Source: Armatimonadota bacterium (lineage in GTDB: Bacteria > Armatimonadota > HRBIN16). From it: a stretch of 64,000 bases of DNA. Below the pieces are notes generated by a model. That model did not search any database and was not told where the DNA came from. It saw only the letters and a list, made by a program, of their open reading frames with translations. Positions 50,582 through 57,557 of the stretch are shown one piece after another (positions within the stretch are counted from its first letter, which is position 1; each line of letters opens with the position of its first letter). The stretch spans positions 160,001-224,000 of the forward strand of contig OY781964.1 of assembly GCA_963677485.1 (NCBI GenBank), written 5' to 3'. The translations under genes and the position numbers were made by a program.

Positions 50582-53500
50582 TTATTCGGCCAGGAATATG
50601 ACAGTTGAGCGCGCGTTCATGTTGTAGCAGATGGTGCCGTTGCGCAGCGCAACCTTTCGGCCAGACACCAGCTCGGTCACCCATCCAGATTGTTTTATGA
50701 AGTGGAACTGCCTTGCCCCGCCGTCCAAAGTATGCACGACCAACAGCTTGCCGCTGCTGTAGGTGATATCACCATCGGTTGGGTTGGCTATCACCACACC
50801 GGCCGACTCGGCGATCCCTCTAAGCAGTGCCGCTGGCAGCACCGGAGCCGTTGAGAAGACGGATGTCCAGCTCGGATACCTCTTGACCGCGAGCCCTGTG
50901 CGTTCAGGCATCACATCCAGTGAGCCCAGGGGCACTCCATCGGTGGGCGTGAATACGGGCCCATAACTCTCGCCGGAGCCGTAGGAGATGCTGTAAGGCA
51001 GGTATTTGTAGACTGCATCGCCTGAAGGATTCAACTTCACCCGAAGCGGTAACTCCTTGTCCAGCATATCCATGTTCATGCCTGTGATTTCAGACACCCG
51101 CGAGGCCGTGAGCATATCACCGTCGGTGATGCCAGGCGCATACACGAAAATGAGCGTCTTGCCTGCCCTCTTCAATCTTTGCTCAATCACCACCTGCTGC
51201 TCACGGGTAATTCGGAAGGTGTTGAGGAACAGGTAGCATTTGTGCTCCGGTAACTTGGCGATGTCATCCAGCAGATACATGTCAAAGCCGATGCCGGTGC
51301 GGCTGAGTTCGCGATACTGGTTTACCACCACATCCTGGTGGATGTTGCTGGCCATGCTTGTATAATAGGTCGACTTTTCATTTACGATCACCGCCAGGGA
51401 GTTGCTCTTATCTTCCGCCGTGCGGTTAGTCTTGGCCACCAGCTCATCGATCTGACGCAGCTTACCGGCTAGCTGCATCAGCCGCTTGTCGCCAGATGTC
51501 CAGCCGACACTGAAATCATAGATCTGCTCTGATGCGGCGTTCACCAGTGCGTTGGCATAGTTGCGTATCATGCCAGCTTTCGAGTCGGCCAGGCTGTTGA
51601 AATGCCCTACCCATGTGGAGTTGTGGCTACGCAGATCGGCCTGATCCACCCACACCTTGCCGTTCAGCTTCACTGAGCCGACCGGGCCCATCAATCCAGA
51701 GCCTCCCCCAATCTGGCGGTCGCTGTAGTCGGAGGGTGACATCAAAAAGTCGATATCAGGCGATTGCAGCACTTTATGCACCGCCGAATGGCCGATAAGC
51801 TGATATCGATACGGCCCCAGCACATGGGTGACATAGCCGTAGAACACCCCCACAAACTTGCTGCCTGAAGTCGCACTCTTCACAACCTTGGCGATATGGG
51901 TGATGTCATCAGCCAGTTGTTCCGCGTAATACTGGCGGTAGTCAACCTCATGGCGACTCTTTTGCGGGTCGAGGAAGGTCATCACATCAGTCTTGAGCCG
52001 TTCCTCTTTAGTTGGTATCTGGATGGCATCGAAGCTCATCAGTGCCGTATTCCAAGCTCGGTTCAGAGCGTTGACGTTCTGGTATTTGGTGCGAAGCCAG
52101 TCGATAAAAGCCTGCCTGGCCGATTCAGAATAGTCCACAAAGACCGCAGGTATGGCCACGGATGCCCACTGCTGCCATTCATATGTCACACCATTTGATG
52201 GTATGTAGCCGATCACCCTGTCGGCATACTGGCTGGATTCTACATGGGTGATCAGCTGGTTGACCAGCGAATCGGCCATCGCCAGCCAGCTCCTGGATGC
52301 CATCGACGGTGCATGGCTGGGAGCTCCGCTATAAGACGGTAAATTCACAGAACCAGTGGAGTCGCGCACCATCTGGTCAGGATGGCTCTCCAACCATGCG
52401 TTCAGCCCGGGGTTGCAGATGTTGTCCAGCGGCACAATCGGCACGATGTAGGCATCTGGGTCCTGGGTGAGAACTGAGGCGATCGCCTCATCCATCCTGG
52501 CAAAGCTGAATTTACCCGACGGCTGCCACTGCGTGCTCAGGATGTTCAGCCAGTAGACATGGATACCCGCGGCGCTCACATTCGCAATCTGCCCCGCGGC
52601 GTTGGTGTCATCGATCCAATAGTTCATCGCGGTGCGCGGTTTCCCACCAATGACAAACCGCGGGCTGCCGTTGATCATCATCAATGCACTGGGCAGGCTC
52701 TTTACGGTGGTGGTTCCAGGTTTCACAGTCAGGGGCAGCACCGCATATCCGTCTTTCACTTTGGCATCCCTGAAACCCGAGACAATCGGTATGGAATTGG
52801 TCAGGCTGATCCGCAGACTGTATTTTCCCGGGATCACCATCCTCGGTAATATGGTGCTGCCGATGGCCATGTATTTGGACAATCCGCTGACGTTAGCTCT
52901 CAACACAGCGGTTGTTGAGACGGCTCCGTCCCGCACCAAATCCACATACAACACAGAGCCCGGCGCAAACTTGCGCTCGGTCGAAACAGTAAACCGACAC
53001 TTCAGCTCCGCTCCTGGTTGAATGGACGCTGGGCAAGAGACATTACCCACAGTATATGAAACACTCTGACCAAGATAGACATAGGGAACCTGATCAGTCC
53101 AGGTGCCGGTCGGCGGTTTCGCTATCGAGATGGCGTCCTGCCAGTTTTCGGTTCCGCTCCGGCGGGCTTTCCAACTCGAATCTGTTTTCAGGAACAACAC
53201 TCTGCCGTTCCGCAGATGGATTCCCGCCTCCAGCATCATGCCAGCCGGCCCGTTGTGGTTGATAGCACTGACAGTCAGCGTGTTCCCGCCGGTCTTGAGA
53301 TACGGCTTGATATCATAGATATCGGCCTGTCGCAAGATGTTGTAATAGCGAGCAGGAGGCAGCTTTCGTCCATTGACGGCGATCGTGCATTCCTTATCGG
53401 CAGTCACGATCACCCTGGCGGTGACCACCTGACGGGCATCAGCCAGATCGAATCTCTTTTCAAACAAGACAGGAGTGGTGTCTTCTTCTTTGCTGTTAGG

Positions 53501-54544
53501 AATCCATATCCATTCACCGCTCCACGAGAAGGCCTTGCCAGCCAAAAGACTTACGATGCGTGTGTTGTTTGTGGGGTCCAACACAAGCCGGATATCATCC
53601 AGACCAATGGAGCCTTTGCCAGAGGGCGAGACGAATGATATCTCCAGCAAGCCGGTGGCTGCCAACTCAGGAACGATGAGCTGCTTACTCAGTGATGACC
53701 ATTGGCCGGCTTGAGCTAAAGCTAGCTGCCATTCCGACCGCTGCTTGATAGGGTTACCGAGAATGTCTTGGTAGATGATGCGGCAAACGGCTTTGTCTCC
53801 TTTGGCCAAGCTGATCAGCTTGTATCTCAGAGTCAACAAATAGTTGCCCGTAGTATCAAACGCAAGCGGCTGTTTGAGCGTCACCGGATTGCCAGAAAGA
53901 CACTTTATAACCGCCGATTCGTTCTGTATGGTGATGCAGCCAGCGTTGAGGGCCGGTGACACCTCCCAGCCGTCCGGCTTGTCTGGAGAATAACTCGCGA
54001 AGTCGCTGTTCCGAACCAGGTTCAACTTATCAATAGATGATGTGCCGTTCGACCGTTTGAAGGCTATTTTCGAGATATCAACATCGGTGTTCGCGACATA
54101 GATTGGATCTACACGAAGCTCATCAATGATGCCTTTCCACTCTGCGTTGGTCGAAAAGTCGATGTCATAAGTGTGATACCGGCCATCACCGATCACTTGA
54201 ATCCCTACCGATTTGCTGTCAGACAAGCCCTCACCCGCATGCTTGAAATACACACTTCCTGAGCCCGAACAGTTGGCCTTCATGGTCACCGCCAGCACAC
54301 TATATGACTGCGTATTGATGATCAAAGCTGGCGAATGCAGAAATGGGAACTTGCTGGTAGTGGCTTTGATAGCACCGCCAGCGACCTCTATCTTCATAAA
54401 ACCATCGGCAGTCCAGCCGTGCATATCAGCATCGGTGTCGAACGTCCATGAAGTCGGAGGCGCTGGGACAGCATCTGCACAATAGGCTGTTGCCACCAGC
54501 AACCCTAGAATGAATATCGAAAATAGTGTCTTGAGAGCGTTCAT
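50582..54544 (-). CDS. Large secreted multidomain glycoside hydrolase (GH42-like beta-galactosidase type catalytic domain plus CBM-like modules)
   Basis: Signal peptide; beta-sandwich modules (LRVDP, WIW, W..D.SWK); PS.AS..W, G.T.EW, GVFYGY, IDFLMSP motifs. Confidence 0.65.
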   Translation of the reverse strand: MNALKTLFSIFILGLLVATAYCADAVPAPPTSWTFDTDADMHGWTADGFMKIEVAGGAIKATTSKFPFLHSPALIINTQSYSVLAVTMKANCSGSGSVYFKHAGEGLSDSKSVGIQVIGDGRYHTYDIDFSTNAEWKGIIDELRVDPIYVANTDVDISKIAFKRSNGTSSIDKLNLVRNSDFASYSPDKPDGWEVSPALNAGCITIQNESAVIKCLSGNPVTLKQPLAFDTTGNYLLTLRYKLISLAKGDKAVCRIIYQDILGNPIKQRSEWQLALAQAGQWSSLSKQLIVPELAATGLLEISFVSPSGKGSIGLDDIRLVLDPTNNTRIVSLLAGKAFSWSGEWIWIPNSKEEDTTPVLFEKRFDLADARQVVTARVIVTADKECTIAVNGRKLPPARYYNILRQADIYDIKPYLKTGGNTLTVSAINHNGPAGMMLEAGIHLRNGRVLFLKTDSSWKARRSGTENWQDAISIAKPPTGTWTDQVPYVYLGQSVSYTVGNVSCPASIQPGAELKCRFTVSTERKFAPGSVLYVDLVRDGAVSTTAVLRANVSGLSKYMAIGSTILPRMVIPGKYSLRISLTNSIPIVSGFRDAKVKDGYAVLPLTVKPGTTTVKSLPSALMMINGSPRFVIGGKPRTAMNYWIDDTNAAGQIANVSAAGIHVYWLNILSTQWQPSGKFSFARMDEAIASVLTQDPDAYIVPIVPLDNICNPGLNAWLESHPDQMVRDSTGSVNLPSYSGAPSHAPSMASRSWLAMADSLVNQLITHVESSQYADRVIGYIPSNGVTYEWQQWASVAIPAVFVDYSESARQAFIDWLRTKYQNVNALNRAWNTALMSFDAIQIPTKEERLKTDVMTFLDPQKSRHEVDYRQYYAEQLADDITHIAKVVKSATSGSKFVGVFYGYVTHVLGPYRYQLIGHSAVHKVLQSPDIDFLMSPSDYSDRQIGGGSGLMGPVGSVKLNGKVWVDQADLRSHNSTWVGHFNSLADSKAGMIRNYANALVNAASEQIYDFSVGWTSGDKRLMQLAGKLRQIDELVAKTNRTAEDKSNSLAVIVNEKSTYYTSMASNIHQDVVVNQYRELSRTGIGFDMYLLDDIAKLPEHKCYLFLNTFRITREQQVVIEQRLKRAGKTLIFVYAPGITDGDMLTASRVSEITGMNMDMLDKELPLRVKLNPSGDAVYKYLPYSISYGSGESYGPVFTPTDGVPLGSLDVMPERTGLAVKRYPSWTSVFSTAPVLPAALLRGIAESAGVVIANPTDGDITYSSGKLLVVHTLDGGARQFHFIKQSGWVTELVSGRKVALRNGTICYNMNARSTVIFLAE

Positions 54545-54562
54545 TGCTGCATGTCTCCTAAG

Positions 54563-56210
54563 GCGGCTTAGCCGCAACCAAAAAAGGAATGATTGCATTC
54601 GCCACGTAATATACATTCAAACACCCTTTCGTGAGGTTGCCCAGAATGACATCACTTCAAGAACGCTATGCAAAGCAGATAGCTGGGGTATATTCATGCT
54701 TCGACCGCATAGTTATCACCGGTACAATCCCAGGCTGGTGTCATAGCGACGGAATGGGCATCTATCTTCATCAACGCAACATCAGGCTATTTGACTTTCC
54801 TAAGGAATTTGCCGAACCTCTACGAGATGAGATCAAAGCCAATGCGGAACGCCTTGCCGTTACCAACAGCATTGAAATTGAGTATATACGCCGTGCCTCT
54901 TCATTTCGAAAAGAAGACCGCATCAAAGAGATCATTAGTAGTCGAGGGTGTCACCCCGGTCTCGTCCACATATTCTCAGTGTTGGAAAAATGTCCTGCAT
55001 ACACCCCGTGGCACGACAAGATTACCCACAAAACCCGGCTGAATATCAAGGAGACCAAGTGTCTTCATTACTACTTCTATTTCATCGATGCAGAGTTTGG
55101 ACTGTGCTATCTACGAGTTCCGACCTGGGTGCCCTTCCGTCTGCAATTCTATTGTAATGGACACAATTATCTCGCGCATTGCCTTCAATCCGAGGGAGTA
55201 GTTTTCACTCCACTGGACAACGCCTTTGTAAAAATCGACGACTTTAGCTGTGCTCAGAGGCTGGCAGACGCTTTTCCTGCTGATAAGCTGCACCATGCGC
55301 TGGATGCATTTGCCAGAATGTATTGCCCCGTGATACGGCTTGCTGACAATTCATATCATTGGTCGCTAATGCAGGTGGAATATGCTACAGACATCGTGTT
55401 CAAACGCGCCGAAGACCTCAAAGCCATCTACGATAATCTAGTCAAAACAGCGATACATACGGTAACGCCAGAGTCTATCGCGATGTTTCTTGGTAAGAAA
55501 CTTGATGGGCGAACACTCGCTGAGATCGGCACTGACTACAAGTTCGATCGCCGCATACAAGGCACGCGCATCAAACACTACATGGGATGGGCTTCTATCA
55601 AAATGTATGACAAGCAAGGGATAATCTTGCGTATCGAGACGACTGTGAATGACGTCTCTGAATTTAAACACTACCGTGAGGTAGAACATCATGATGGGAC
55701 GACTGAGATTAAATACGCCCCTATGCAAAAGACCATCTACAGCCTTCCTCCATTGAGGGAACTGTTATTATCTGCAAACAACAGATATCTTGACTTTCTT
55801 TCCGCCCTTGATGACAACAGCGATGGTGAACATCAGATCATCAAAATCGCGACCTCGACCACCCGTGATCATCGCTCGTATCGAGGATTCAACCTTTTCC
55901 TCAAGAAGGATTTGGAATGTCTCATTGCACTTGCTCGCGGAGAGGGATGCATCAGCGGGATCACAAACCGTATGCTTCAAAAAGCCTTACCGCAGATGTC
56001 CAGCTCTCAGATATCATACTTCATCAAGCGATGCCGAGTATTCCGGCTCGTTAAAAAATGCGGTAAACGCTACAAATACTACCTCACTGCACTTGGCAAG
56101 CGTATCATCATGGCAGCACTTGCTATTCGCCAGATCGTTGTGCCTAACGCTTTGTGTGGTGCGTAATATCAGAATATTCTATACACCGTGTTCAAAATAT
56201 GGTTGGTAAG
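54563..56210 (+). mobile_element. Putative atypical insertion element (ends tentative)
   Basis: Single lower-GC ORF; left-end hairpin gcggc-tta-gccgc; imperfect inverted ends; sits immediately upstream of the RBS of the GH gene. Confidence 0.5.
54646..56166 (+). CDS. Putative transposase with Rep_trans-like motifs and a C-terminal winged HTH (MarR-like)
   Basis: FDRIVITG, HYYFYFID, NGH, QVEYATD, IKMYDK, LRIETT; C-terminal Y.LT.LG wing. Confidence 0.6.
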   Translation: MTSLQERYAKQIAGVYSCFDRIVITGTIPGWCHSDGMGIYLHQRNIRLFDFPKEFAEPLRDEIKANAERLAVTNSIEIEYIRRASSFRKEDRIKEIISSRGCHPGLVHIFSVLEKCPAYTPWHDKITHKTRLNIKETKCLHYYFYFIDAEFGLCYLRVPTWVPFRLQFYCNGHNYLAHCLQSEGVVFTPLDNAFVKIDDFSCAQRLADAFPADKLHHALDAFARMYCPVIRLADNSYHWSLMQVEYATDIVFKRAEDLKAIYDNLVKTAIHTVTPESIAMFLGKKLDGRTLAEIGTDYKFDRRIQGTRIKHYMGWASIKMYDKQGIILRIETTVNDVSEFKHYREVEHHDGTTEIKYAPMQKTIYSLPPLRELLLSANNRYLDFLSALDDNSDGEHQIIKIATSTTRDHRSYRGFNLFLKKDLECLIALARGEGCISGITNRMLQKALPQMSSSQISYFIKRCRVFRLVKKCGKRYKYYLTALGKRIIMAALAIRQIVVPNALCGA

Positions 56211-56426
56211 ATACTAATCAGCTACCGGCTTCATACTAATCCGTGTTATCTCGGCTCGCTATAGTTGGAGTTTACACGAAGATTGTACCCTTATCCATTA
56301 GCTAAAGATCATCAAGTAGCTCCGTTGAACAGACAGACTGAGCTGCACTTGACGGGGTATGTAAAGCTATGCTACAGTGACGTATCACAACACACCGCAA
56401 TATGGTTAAATATGAGGAATCGTTCG

Positions 56427-57557
56427 ATGAAAACAGCGTCAAGTATCCTGTTGGTATTAGCCTGTGTACTCCACGCGCCTTCGGTTTACCCGCAGTCGCA
56501 GCCAGTCACCTCGCAGCCAGGTAAAGTGGTTGTGCCCACGGTCTACGATGAAGTCTATGATATCAATGATGGTATAGCACTGGTGGAACGTAATAAGCTT
56601 TGGGGCTATGTGGACAAAACCGGGCTTGAAGCGATCCCATGCAAATACGAAAGCTATTTCCCTACCGAAGGCATTGCCGAAGGGTTGGCCTGTCTGGCTG
56701 AAGACACCTGGTTTGGCTTCTTGAATAAGTCAGGGCAGCAGGTCATCCCGTTTAAATATGATGAAGCCTGGCCTTTCAAAGACGGATATGCGATGGTAAA
56801 ACTCGATGACAAATGCGGGTTTATCAACAAGCAAGGCCGCGTCGTCGTTCCACTGAAGTATGAGCTGGTTTTCCCATTTTCTGCTGGCATGGCCGCCGTC
56901 ATGGCGAACAAACAGTGGGGCTTTGTGGGCACAAATGGCAGTGAGATCATCCCATTGAAATATGAAGAGGCCGATTCGTTCTGCGAAGGTCTAGCAGCGG
57001 TCAAGCTGAACAAGCTCTGGGGTTTCATTGATCTCAAGGCGCGTGAAGTCATCCCGTGTCAATATGACCTGGTGGAGTCGTTCAAAGAGGGTATGGCCGG
57101 TGTGGAGACCAACGGGAAGCTGGGGTTTGTGAACCCCTCTGGAGCGGTGGTCGTTCCGATGAAATACACCTATACATACCCATGTGGGCGCTTCTCGGAA
57201 GGCATGGCGGTCGTCTGCCTCGACAAGAAATGGGGATTCGTCGACAAAAAGGGGCGAGAACTGGTTCCGTTGAAATACACTGGTGCTGATGACTATCATG
57301 AGGGTTTGGCGAAAGTGCAGCTTGCGGGCAAATGGGGATTTATCAACAAAGCCGGAGCCCCAGTGATTCCGCTGCGGTATGACAAAGCAAACTCCTTCAG
57401 CGAAGGGCTGGCCGGCATCAAGCGCGACGGCAAATGGGGTTACATCGACAAAACCGGCCGTGAAGTCATCCCACCCACCTACGATGAAGCACTCGGCTTC
57501 CACGGCGGCTTGGCCGGTGTGAAGTTGAACGGTAAGTGGGGATTTATCAGCAAGTAA
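56427..57557 (+). CDS. Secreted WG-repeat (WG_beta_rep) protein
   Basis: About 10 repeats of F.EG.A.V....KWGF.DK.G..VIP..Y; signal peptide; TTGACG...TACAGT promoter-like sequence upstream. Confidence 0.92.
   Translation: MKTASSILLVLACVLHAPSVYPQSQPVTSQPGKVVVPTVYDEVYDINDGIALVERNKLWGYVDKTGLEAIPCKYESYFPTEGIAEGLACLAEDTWFGFLNKSGQQVIPFKYDEAWPFKDGYAMVKLDDKCGFINKQGRVVVPLKYELVFPFSAGMAAVMANKQWGFVGTNGSEIIPLKYEEADSFCEGLAAVKLNKLWGFIDLKAREVIPCQYDLVESFKEGMAGVETNGKLGFVNPSGAVVVPMKYTYTYPCGRFSEGMAVVCLDKKWGFVDKKGRELVPLKYTGADDYHEGLAKVQLAGKWGFINKAGAPVIPLRYDKANSFSEGLAGIKRDGKWGYIDKTGREVIPPTYDEALGFHGGLAGVKLNGKWGFISK

Follow-up and report, generated by a model that had tools for sequence, protein, structure and literature searches.

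A repeated 1661-bp element of an Armatimonadota genome as a probable member of an unclassified, CCTAW-targeting insertion sequence family with a Rep_trans-like transposase

The available sections of PMC13107129 and PMC5714925 assign the Rep_trans proteins functions in replication and conjugation, and no transposase is mentioned among them there. Their motifs are described as N′ (D), I (RxD), II, III (YxKxxE) and IV (W/LxRxE), with the tyrosine lying on a beta strand (PMC5714925, sections available), and the catalytic residues of RepDE are listed as Y191 together with D46, D142 and E214 (PMC13107129, sections available). The present analysis concerns a 64,000-nt stretch of an Armatimonadota bacterium (the window: assembly GCA_963677485.1, contig OY781964.1, positions 160,001 to 224,000 of the forward strand), and more precisely the insertion element at 54557–56217 of this window on the plus strand, which contains a single gene for a putative transposase of 506 aa. 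A first-pass annotation, made from the sequence alone, had proposed a tyrosine-dependent, possibly single-stranded transposon family at this place, and our results support that proposal, with tyrosine catalysis and a single-stranded route as its inferred parts. Our best reading is that the element represents a new insertion sequence (IS) family which a Rep_trans-like tyrosine nickase mobilises in single-strand, rolling-circle-like steps. We give a probability of roughly 0.7 to the view that it belongs to a very large insertion sequence family that has yet to be classified, that its sole gene encodes a transposase composed of a Rep_trans-type TBP-fold domain and a winged helix, and that the element is active and recently expanded. 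Its distribution is patchy, as shown below.

The window's own genome, a single 5.22-Mb contig, was searched at the DNA level and the unit edges were then determined with blastn. A total of 22 copies of a 1661-bp unit (54557–56217) were obtained, 16 of which are identical over 1661 bp and three over 1660 bp, while two carry one mismatch and one is 99.2% identical. The edges had previously been placed at 54563 and 56210; the comparison of copies moved them to 54557 and 56217, and the contigs of public runs break, or continue into other flanks, exactly at 54557 and 56218. Every copy of this genome starts with CCTAAGGCGGCTTAGCCGCA and ends with GGTAAGATACTA, or with GGTAAGATATTA in one copy; the base that comes next is A 18 times and T four times. 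The end base is the same in all 22 copies, and no read-through copies carrying flanking DNA were seen. No terminal inverted repeats were found in the 22 aligned copies. The weakly inverted ends noticed earlier are not a feature of the family. The G+C content of the element is 46.4% against 54.0% in the neighbouring hydrolase-like gene, as the earlier remark on its higher AT content had indicated, and an Rfam search of 54400–56400 at E ≤ 1 gave no match. All 12 element matches scored by a protein search of the own genome keep an open frame. Two arrangements of copies were also observed, namely an inverted pair at 5217906–5219566 (+) and 391–2051 (−), which would lie 864 bp apart across the contig start if the contig is circular, and two direct copies 3 kb apart at 3219951 and 3224646, a pair that might behave as a composite unit or allow rearrangements.

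The element was not found in the complete genome of a sister species of the same genus by DNA searches with four copies and their flanks, while the flanks themselves were found, so that the outcome named earlier as speaking against a mobile element, a single-copy and syntenic gene, was not what was observed. For two copies the sister species keeps the flanks adjacent, reading GTCT-CCTGA-TCAGC where the own genome has GTCT-[CCTAAGG...ACTAA]-TCAGC, and ...CCCTCA-TTATG where the own genome has ...TGT-[CCTAAGG...ACTAA]-TTATG; the two further copies gave only repeated-gene matches in the sister genome and no usable empty site. Protein searches detected the family in nine of 121 Armatimonadota genomes, the own genome included, and in none of nine other genomes of the same taxonomic family, comprising the other member of the genus and eight more. 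A scan of species genomes with an 11-sequence family alignment yielded 227 confirmed relatives, 80 of which were kept as loci and underlie the loci figures given below. These loci were obtained from Armatimonadota, Chloroflexota, Acidobacteriota, Gemmatimonadota, Desulfobacterota, Gammaproteobacteria, Bacteroidota, Planctomycetota, Nitrospirota and Actinomycetes, with one each from a Parcubacteria and a Bathyarchaeia-type metagenome-assembled genome (MAG), and many of them lie on contigs of 1.6–2.3 kb. A full-length relative (53% identity, same left end) was located on the 20.6-kb contig WRNB01000034.1 of a MAG titled Candidatus Bathycorpusculum grumuli, by its name presumably an archaeon, which reflects either cross-domain spread or a binning error. 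A plasmid of the cultured Paraburkholderia phytofirmans OLGA172 harbors a 47%-identical copy with the same ends, annotated as ArsR.

Alignment of the genomic copies with empty sites, which the first-pass annotation had suggested, was carried out and defined both the ends and the target. The copy at 824515 of the own genome reads ...aaaca CCTAA[GGCGG...GATA]CTAT actcagc, its right part before actcagc being GATACTAT, and two intact paralogues, whose flanks are 100% and 99.3% identical to its own, have ...aaaca CCTAT actcagc at this place. This copy is the most diverged (99.2%) and sits inside another repeated sequence (824365–826325 of the own genome), whose intact copies lie at 109418–109709 and 2854889–2855180, with 138–150 bp of each 150-bp flank matched. 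At the insertion spot of a second copy, at 2412984, a paralogue with 93% and 83% identical flanks reads CCCTAA. From the comparison of empty paralogous sites with filled ones we conclude that the target is 5′-CCTAW-3′, that 1656 bp are added to it (for instance 54561–56216 if the crossover follows CCTA), that the base after ...ACTA is target-derived and that the crossover took place at some point within C^C^T^A^. The left part of the target, CCTA, occupies 54557–54560, of which at least the first base is target-derived, and CCTAA is present at all 22 left junctions. On the right, the motif GGTAAGATACTA at 56205–56216 (family consensus TAAGRNACTA) closes the element, whose DNA ends at or within the final CTA, and the A at 56217 is the W of the target and lies outside the element. 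The right junctions comprise 17 ACTAA, four ACTAT and one ATTAA, the last from a C-to-T change in the copy at 4186307. The earlier statement that no target-site duplication is present was therefore half right, since there is no true duplication, but CTA stands at both junctions, inside the CCTAW target. About 9100 CCTAW sites are present in the own genome. Contigs of four public runs, which cannot show rare forms, reported no empty-site or circle-junction joints.

These junctions bear on two other mechanisms. The first is a strict "peel and paste" of the IS200/IS605 type by a non-HUH enzyme, inserting 3′ of a CCTAA that lies wholly outside the element; the constant CCTAA on the left, a subterminal hairpin and the lack of inverted repeats and of a duplication would all agree with it. 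However, the empty site of the copy ending in ...ACTAT is CCTAT and not CCTAA, so that the element has the final base of the target on its right, and a pentanucleotide target wholly on the left, as in IS608, is excluded by this comparison of CCTAT with the filled CCTAA[...]ACTAT. The conserved hairpin, moreover, was shown only at the left end, and this mechanism appears to us scarcely credible. The second is a conservative site-specific recombination of a double-stranded circle, in the manner of IS110/IS1111 or of an integrase, in which a CTA or CTAA core recombines with CCTAW. The CTA at both junctions resembles an att core, the target is sequence-specific, inverted repeats are absent and the orientation of the copies has no significant link to the direction of replication. 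This explanation is nevertheless met by a protein with no DEDD, serine-recombinase or tyrosine-recombinase domain, whose predicted fold matches single-strand nickases and in which only one motif-III tyrosine is conserved. Under it the left-end hairpin would only be a palindrome for protein binding, whereas the stem covaries as in a folded strand, though a palindromic duplex bound by a dimer could covary too. On balance, we consider a double-stranded circle rather unlikely.

The left-end hairpin GCGGC-TTA-GCCGC (54563–54575) begins one base after CCTAA; it had been noticed before, is present in the minimum-energy fold and was found to be conserved across the family, while a second mini-hairpin proposed beside it (ctaag-gcgg-cttag) is not conserved in the relatives. 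On its 3′ side it is followed by the conserved tract AACCAAAAAAGG (54576–54587; family consensus AACCAAAMAGG), which is predicted to be single-stranded. The anchor AACCAA was observed upstream of the open reading frame (ORF) in 59 of the 70 loci with enough upstream sequence. After three chance anchors, four truncated or aberrant rows and six same-genome duplicates were dropped, 46 loci and the window copy remained, and these 47 distinct members align without gaps as nnnCCTAA-C-CCGGC-nnA-GCCGG-AACCAAAMAGG, with AACCAAA invariant and CCTAA at the left junction of most relatives. Compensatory changes were detected in two of the five stem pairs, pair 10–22 being CG in 42 members, UA in three and GC in two, and pair 11–21 being CG in 38 and UA in nine, with none unpaired; the 14 double-change cells were reached by none of 500 shuffles. 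The case for the hairpin rests on this covariation, because single-strand folding of the ends was no better than that of shuffled sequences (z −1.3 left, +0.3 right), and we propose that the hairpin is a recognition element beside the nick site. The remaining 11 of the 70 loci lack both the anchor and the CCTAA-hairpin-AACCAAA left end, and a Gemmatimonadales pair among them starts with CCTTCGCCCC but has the usual TAAGGGACTA at its end, followed by a base that varies; these therefore indicate a subgroup with a different left end. The right end follows the pattern TA[AG][GCA]N(1-4)[AC]CTA, 48–86 nt after the stop codon, in 58 of 73 loci, a pattern that is partly self-selecting, and 14 of the other 15 show a one-off variant of it by eye. 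The base after the right end is A in 43 of 51 distinct sequences and conservation stops beyond it. Copy pairs within five genomes have ends like those of the window element.

The gene lies at 54646–56166 on the plus strand and encodes 506 aa plus the stop codon, as the ORF of about 506 aa noted earlier had suggested; it starts with the ATG at 54646, 9 nt after GAGG, whereas the listed GTG at 54631 would give 511 aa. The relatives are mostly 505–508 aa in length. At least 7998 relatives were obtained at 90% clustering (7998 of the 8000 candidates scored), and at 50% clustering there were at least 6547 representatives at E ≤ 0.001 and 659 at E ≤ 1e-30. The databases name these relatives hypothetical, MarR or ArsR and label none of them mobile. 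Pfam and NCBIfam searches of the 506-aa protein gave no match (Pfam at E ≤ 1), in line with the earlier statement that DDE, HUH, serine and tyrosine recombinase signatures are absent; a serine or tyrosine recombinase was rejected as a candidate, since no such domain was found by these searches. Sequence searches of the PDB with the protein and with the family profile returned only winged-helix proteins, weakly, and the ESM Atlas only unnamed clusters.

Residues ~395–506 (55828–56163) form a winged helix-turn-helix in the predicted model, with VIA Z scores of 8–10 to MarR/HxlR/ArsR-type chains, a profile match to MarR 3bj6 (E 0.012) and matches of HVO_A0261_N to 30 of 68 family members. This C-terminal winged helix accounts for the MarR and ArsR annotations of the relatives, as had been anticipated when the first-pass annotation warned of a misleading MarR label. 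A plain MarR/ArsR regulator was rejected, since the winged helix covers these C-terminal residues only and the gene lies in a mobile unit of 22 copies.

The larger part of the protein, residues 1–390 (54646–55815), is predicted by AlphaFold, VIA and Foldseek to be a TBP-like double-repeat catalytic domain. The AlphaFold model has a pLDDT of 93.1 for the whole protein and 95.8 for residues 1–390, which fold in the model as two repeats of strand-helix-four strands-helix. VIA matched it to TBP (Z 9.0, 180 aa, 3.9 Å), RepDE 4cwc (Z 7.3, 179 aa, 5.5 Å) and RepSTK1 4cij (Z 7.0, 190 aa, 4.9 Å), and a Z of 8 was reached by only two of 48,161 chains. The best Foldseek matches in the PDB were the Rep_trans structures 4cij, 4cwe and 4cwc (E 5.7e-4 to 4e-3, probability 0.93–0.99), the top match being 4cij (E 5.7e-4, probability 0.98). 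The viral library BFVD gave 15 matches at E ≤ 0.001, including viral TBPs and A0A345MNV4 (E 9.6e-5, probability 1.00), which is described as an Inoviridae protein with a Rep_trans domain (PMC13107129, sections available). The structure check suggested earlier thus returned a TBP-like double repeat rather than an RNase H/DDE fold, with Rep_trans initiators as the best enzyme matches. A DDE/RNase H transposase was rejected because of this predicted fold, as was an HUH enzyme, which the Pfam and NCBIfam searches had also failed to detect.

Conservation was measured in 68 full-length relatives of 28–77% identity. Residues D20, R21, G105, Y143, Y145, G152, P163, N171, N192, E245, F252, K319, Y321, R329 and E331 are invariant, and D249 and K323 are invariant or at least 90% conserved. 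When the RepDE catalytic residues are counted on pT181 RepC they fall in SFDAMT, RLDLAFD, IRIYNK and WRVE, and the counterparts in the 506-aa protein are FDR (D20), QVEYATD (E245, D249), IKMYDK (Y321, K323) and LRIE (R329, E331). The last three of these motifs had already been pointed out, and they are present, with E245, D249, K319, Y321, K323, R329 and E331 all invariant or at least 90% conserved. D20, E245, Y321(xK) and R329xE331 are arranged along the protein as motifs N′, I, III and IV are in Rep_trans. In the model, D20 is placed on the opening strand of repeat 1, and the other three fall on strands 1, 4 and 5 of repeat 2, respectively. The codon of D20 (54703–54705), a proposed metal ligand, would correspond to motif N′ (RepDE D46), with which hhalign pairs it, and that of E245 (55378–55380), a second proposed ligand, to motif I (D142), again paired by hhalign. 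The proposed catalytic tyrosine Y321 (55606–55608) lies on the predicted strand 316–323 and would correspond to the motif III YxK, a sub-region hhalign pairing it with Y191, while R329-I330-E331 (55630–55638) would match the RxE of motif IV (E214). The pairing with D142, D146 and Y191 of RepC proposed earlier was reproduced, weakly, by profile alignment. A separate stretch, HYYFYF (residues 141–146, 55066–55083), lies on a strand of the first repeat, contains the invariant Y143 and Y145, and is possibly a second tyrosine site or a base-stacking surface.

These residues also bear on the idea that the protein is only a DNA-binding factor of a non-autonomous element, the cutting being done by a host enzyme or an unlinked transposase. 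The best structural match is TBP (Z 9.0), which does nothing but bind DNA, the databases name the relatives MarR or ArsR and no significant sequence link to Rep_trans was obtained, all of which would suit a binding factor. The invariant D, E, E and Y-x-K stand in the Rep_trans order, however, which is not a DNA-contact pattern, and this gene alone among ORFs is retained by all the elements, in many phyla and always between the same conserved ends. Hosts so diverse could have no second gene in common. The letter-identical state of 16 of 22 copies and the open frames of the 12 scored matches also argue against it, and we regard a mere binding factor as very unlikely.

Several observations weigh against a Rep_trans-like nickase. 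Motif I has QxE in place of RxD, and the downstream E of motif III is missing. An hhalign comparison with RepC alone gave a probability of 0.1%, and one with a small Rep_trans alignment of 13 sequences from plasmid records (eight diverse and five close) gave 1% (E 0.056), with D20 paired with D46. The catalytic half alone reached 11% (E 0.0027), a weak score, pairing E245 with D142, D249 with D146 and Y321 with Y191, so that profile-profile homology to Rep_trans is not significant. Pfam Rep_trans (PF02486) matched neither the whole genome at E ≤ 0.01, where a Bacillus subtilis control does match, nor the 506-aa protein at E ≤ 1, and it is not among the 25 listed of the 56 families matched by the 68 relatives. 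The structural scores are middling (Z 7.0–7.3, root-mean-square deviation 4.9–5.5 Å, TM 0.22–0.36), and TBP, which is not an enzyme, outscores Rep_trans in VIA, so that the fold alone does not prove nickase function. The meeting of Y321 with the acidic residues in space is a prediction from motif order and strands. Finally, with replichores drawn by GC skew (origin near 2.15 Mb, terminus near 4.75 Mb), 15 of the 22 insertions lie in one sense (two-sided p 0.13); orientation thus tracks the replichores weakly and lends no support to lagging-strand-template targeting, nor does it exclude it. Taking both sides together, the protein probably works like Rep_trans and probably comes from the same stock, outside the Pfam family.

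For transposition by a Rep_trans-like nickase, the following course may be proposed. The winged helix and the catalytic domain would recognise the left-end hairpin and the AACCAAA tract, and Y321, with a metal held by D20, E245 and E331, would nick one strand within or just after the CTA beside the hairpin and become joined to the 5′ phosphate. The nicked strand might then be peeled off, or displaced by synthesis from the free 3′-OH, until a second cleavage at the right-end ...ACTA would release it. Joining would close the strand into a single-stranded circle, with the nick site restored at its ACTA-A-hairpin junction, and the same chemistry would open the CCTA^W target and paste the strand in. 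The resulting junctions would read CCTA-[element]-W, as observed, with neither inverted repeats nor a true duplication. The data agree with a nickase that has [A/C]CTA^ as its recognition sequence in three settings, that is, the left junction next to the hairpin, the right end and the target. From these features we infer that the tyrosine is catalytic, which strand and which bond are cut, that a circle is the intermediate, and the choice between copy-out and cut-out.

As to novelty, a full-text literature search, with supplements outside its reach, revealed no description of a transposase of this type, and the NCBI family models, which name IS transposases, did not match the 506-aa protein. 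It seems to us somewhat probable that the element is the founding example of a new transposase class, a TBP-fold, Rep_trans-related tyrosine nickase that targets CCTAW, occurs in many phyla, is invisible to annotation and is not homologous to DDE, DEDD, HUH, serine, tyrosine-recombinase or Cas1 enzymes. What this analysis adds is the CCTAW target with its exact empty sites, the end architecture of the whole family together with its covariation, and the mapping of four residues to the Rep_trans site. If this reading is true, thousands of genes that now carry the label hypothetical, MarR or ArsR encode transposases, and many assembly breaks and gene disruptions in environmental genomes are due to a cause that has gone unrecognised. 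A transposase class would also be added on the second, non-HUH family of rolling-circle nickases, so that both nickase folds would have been recruited for replication, conjugation and transposition, the Rep_trans superfamily having independently given rise to transposons as the HUH superfamily did. The element is compact, with one protein, a left end of roughly 30 nt, a right end of roughly 12 nt and a 5-nt target, and is thus easy to test biochemically; cultured hosts exist, such as that of the Paraburkholderia plasmid copy.

Some features of the neighbourhood were also observed. The 1344-aa ORF of the large hydrolase-like gene (50582–54616, minus strand) extends 60 nt into the element, but the real start of this gene is probably the ATG whose first base is 54544 on the minus strand (MNALKTLF..., a signal-peptide-like N-terminus), in which case the element lies upstream of the start codon at a distance of 12 nt and probably disconnects the gene from its promoter. 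The same intergenic space in the sister species (4845051–4845577) measures about 526 bp against about 125 bp here, and is filled with GC-rich palindromic, REP-like repeats with hairpins of the CCCACGAAGTGGG type. The gene to the right of the element (56265–57557) encodes a secreted protein with about a dozen KWGF/WG-type repeats and shares 76% DNA identity with the sister species.

A comparison with known systems reveals partial resemblances to several of them. IS110/IS1111 elements are unlike the present family, in which Pfam finds no DEDD (RuvC-like) Tnp_20 domain. The IS91/ISCR elements, compared on the IS91 model in the available sections of PMC5714925, are similar in having one gene, no inverted repeats, no true duplication and a short specific target that resembles the element end (here CCTA^W and ACTA^), as well as two distinct ends, one origin-like and one terminator-like, and a tyrosine nickase related to rolling-circle initiators, the last being proposed here. 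They differ in their HUH Y2 transposase, where the present protein has a predicted TBP-like fold and no Pfam or NCBIfam match. Read-through copies were not seen among the 22 copies here, and the target is CCTAW, while that of IS91/ISCR is GTTC/CTTG. IS200/IS605 elements (IS608, ISDra2; HUH Y1) likewise combine a subterminal hairpin by the cleavage site, as proposed here, with sequence-specific insertion, a precise junction and no inverted repeats. The present element, unlike these, has neither a Y1_Tnp domain nor a tnpB partner, its target is split by the element (CCTA / W) and not wholly on the left, its conserved hairpin was shown only at the left end, and its protein is about three times larger and carries a winged helix.

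The enzyme itself resembles Rep_trans/MOB_T proteins (PF02486: pT181 RepC/RepD, RepSTK1, NicK, RelSt3) in its predicted TBP-like double-repeat fold, in the tyrosine placed on a beta strand within YxK, in a putative acidic triad from the first strand of each repeat and the RxE strand, as judged here by motif order, and in the hairpin beside the proposed nick site. The Pfam model of that family, on the other hand, does not match here, and profile comparison gives no significant homology. Motif I reads QxE, some 130 additional residues form helical insertions besides the C-terminal winged helix, and the gene belongs to a chromosomal multi-copy IS rather than to a plasmid, phage or conjugative element. 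The last resemblance is to Rep-Arvir (DUF7845), which is not among the 25 listed of the 56 families matched by the 68 relatives, the presence of its model in that Pfam copy being uncertain. As far as the available sections of PMC13107129 describe it, Rep-Arvir also has an N-terminal TBP-like catalytic domain followed by a MarR-like winged helix, is tied to Rep_trans by structure only, with an invariant tyrosine and acidic residues, and shares the Foldseek match to the same viral protein, A0A345MNV4. It is described there, however, as a replication initiator of archaeal viruses and plasmids with its tyrosine in KHYYM, whereas the family reported here is bacterial, apart from one archaeal MAG contig, belongs to a chromosomal IS and carries its tyrosine in KMYDK.

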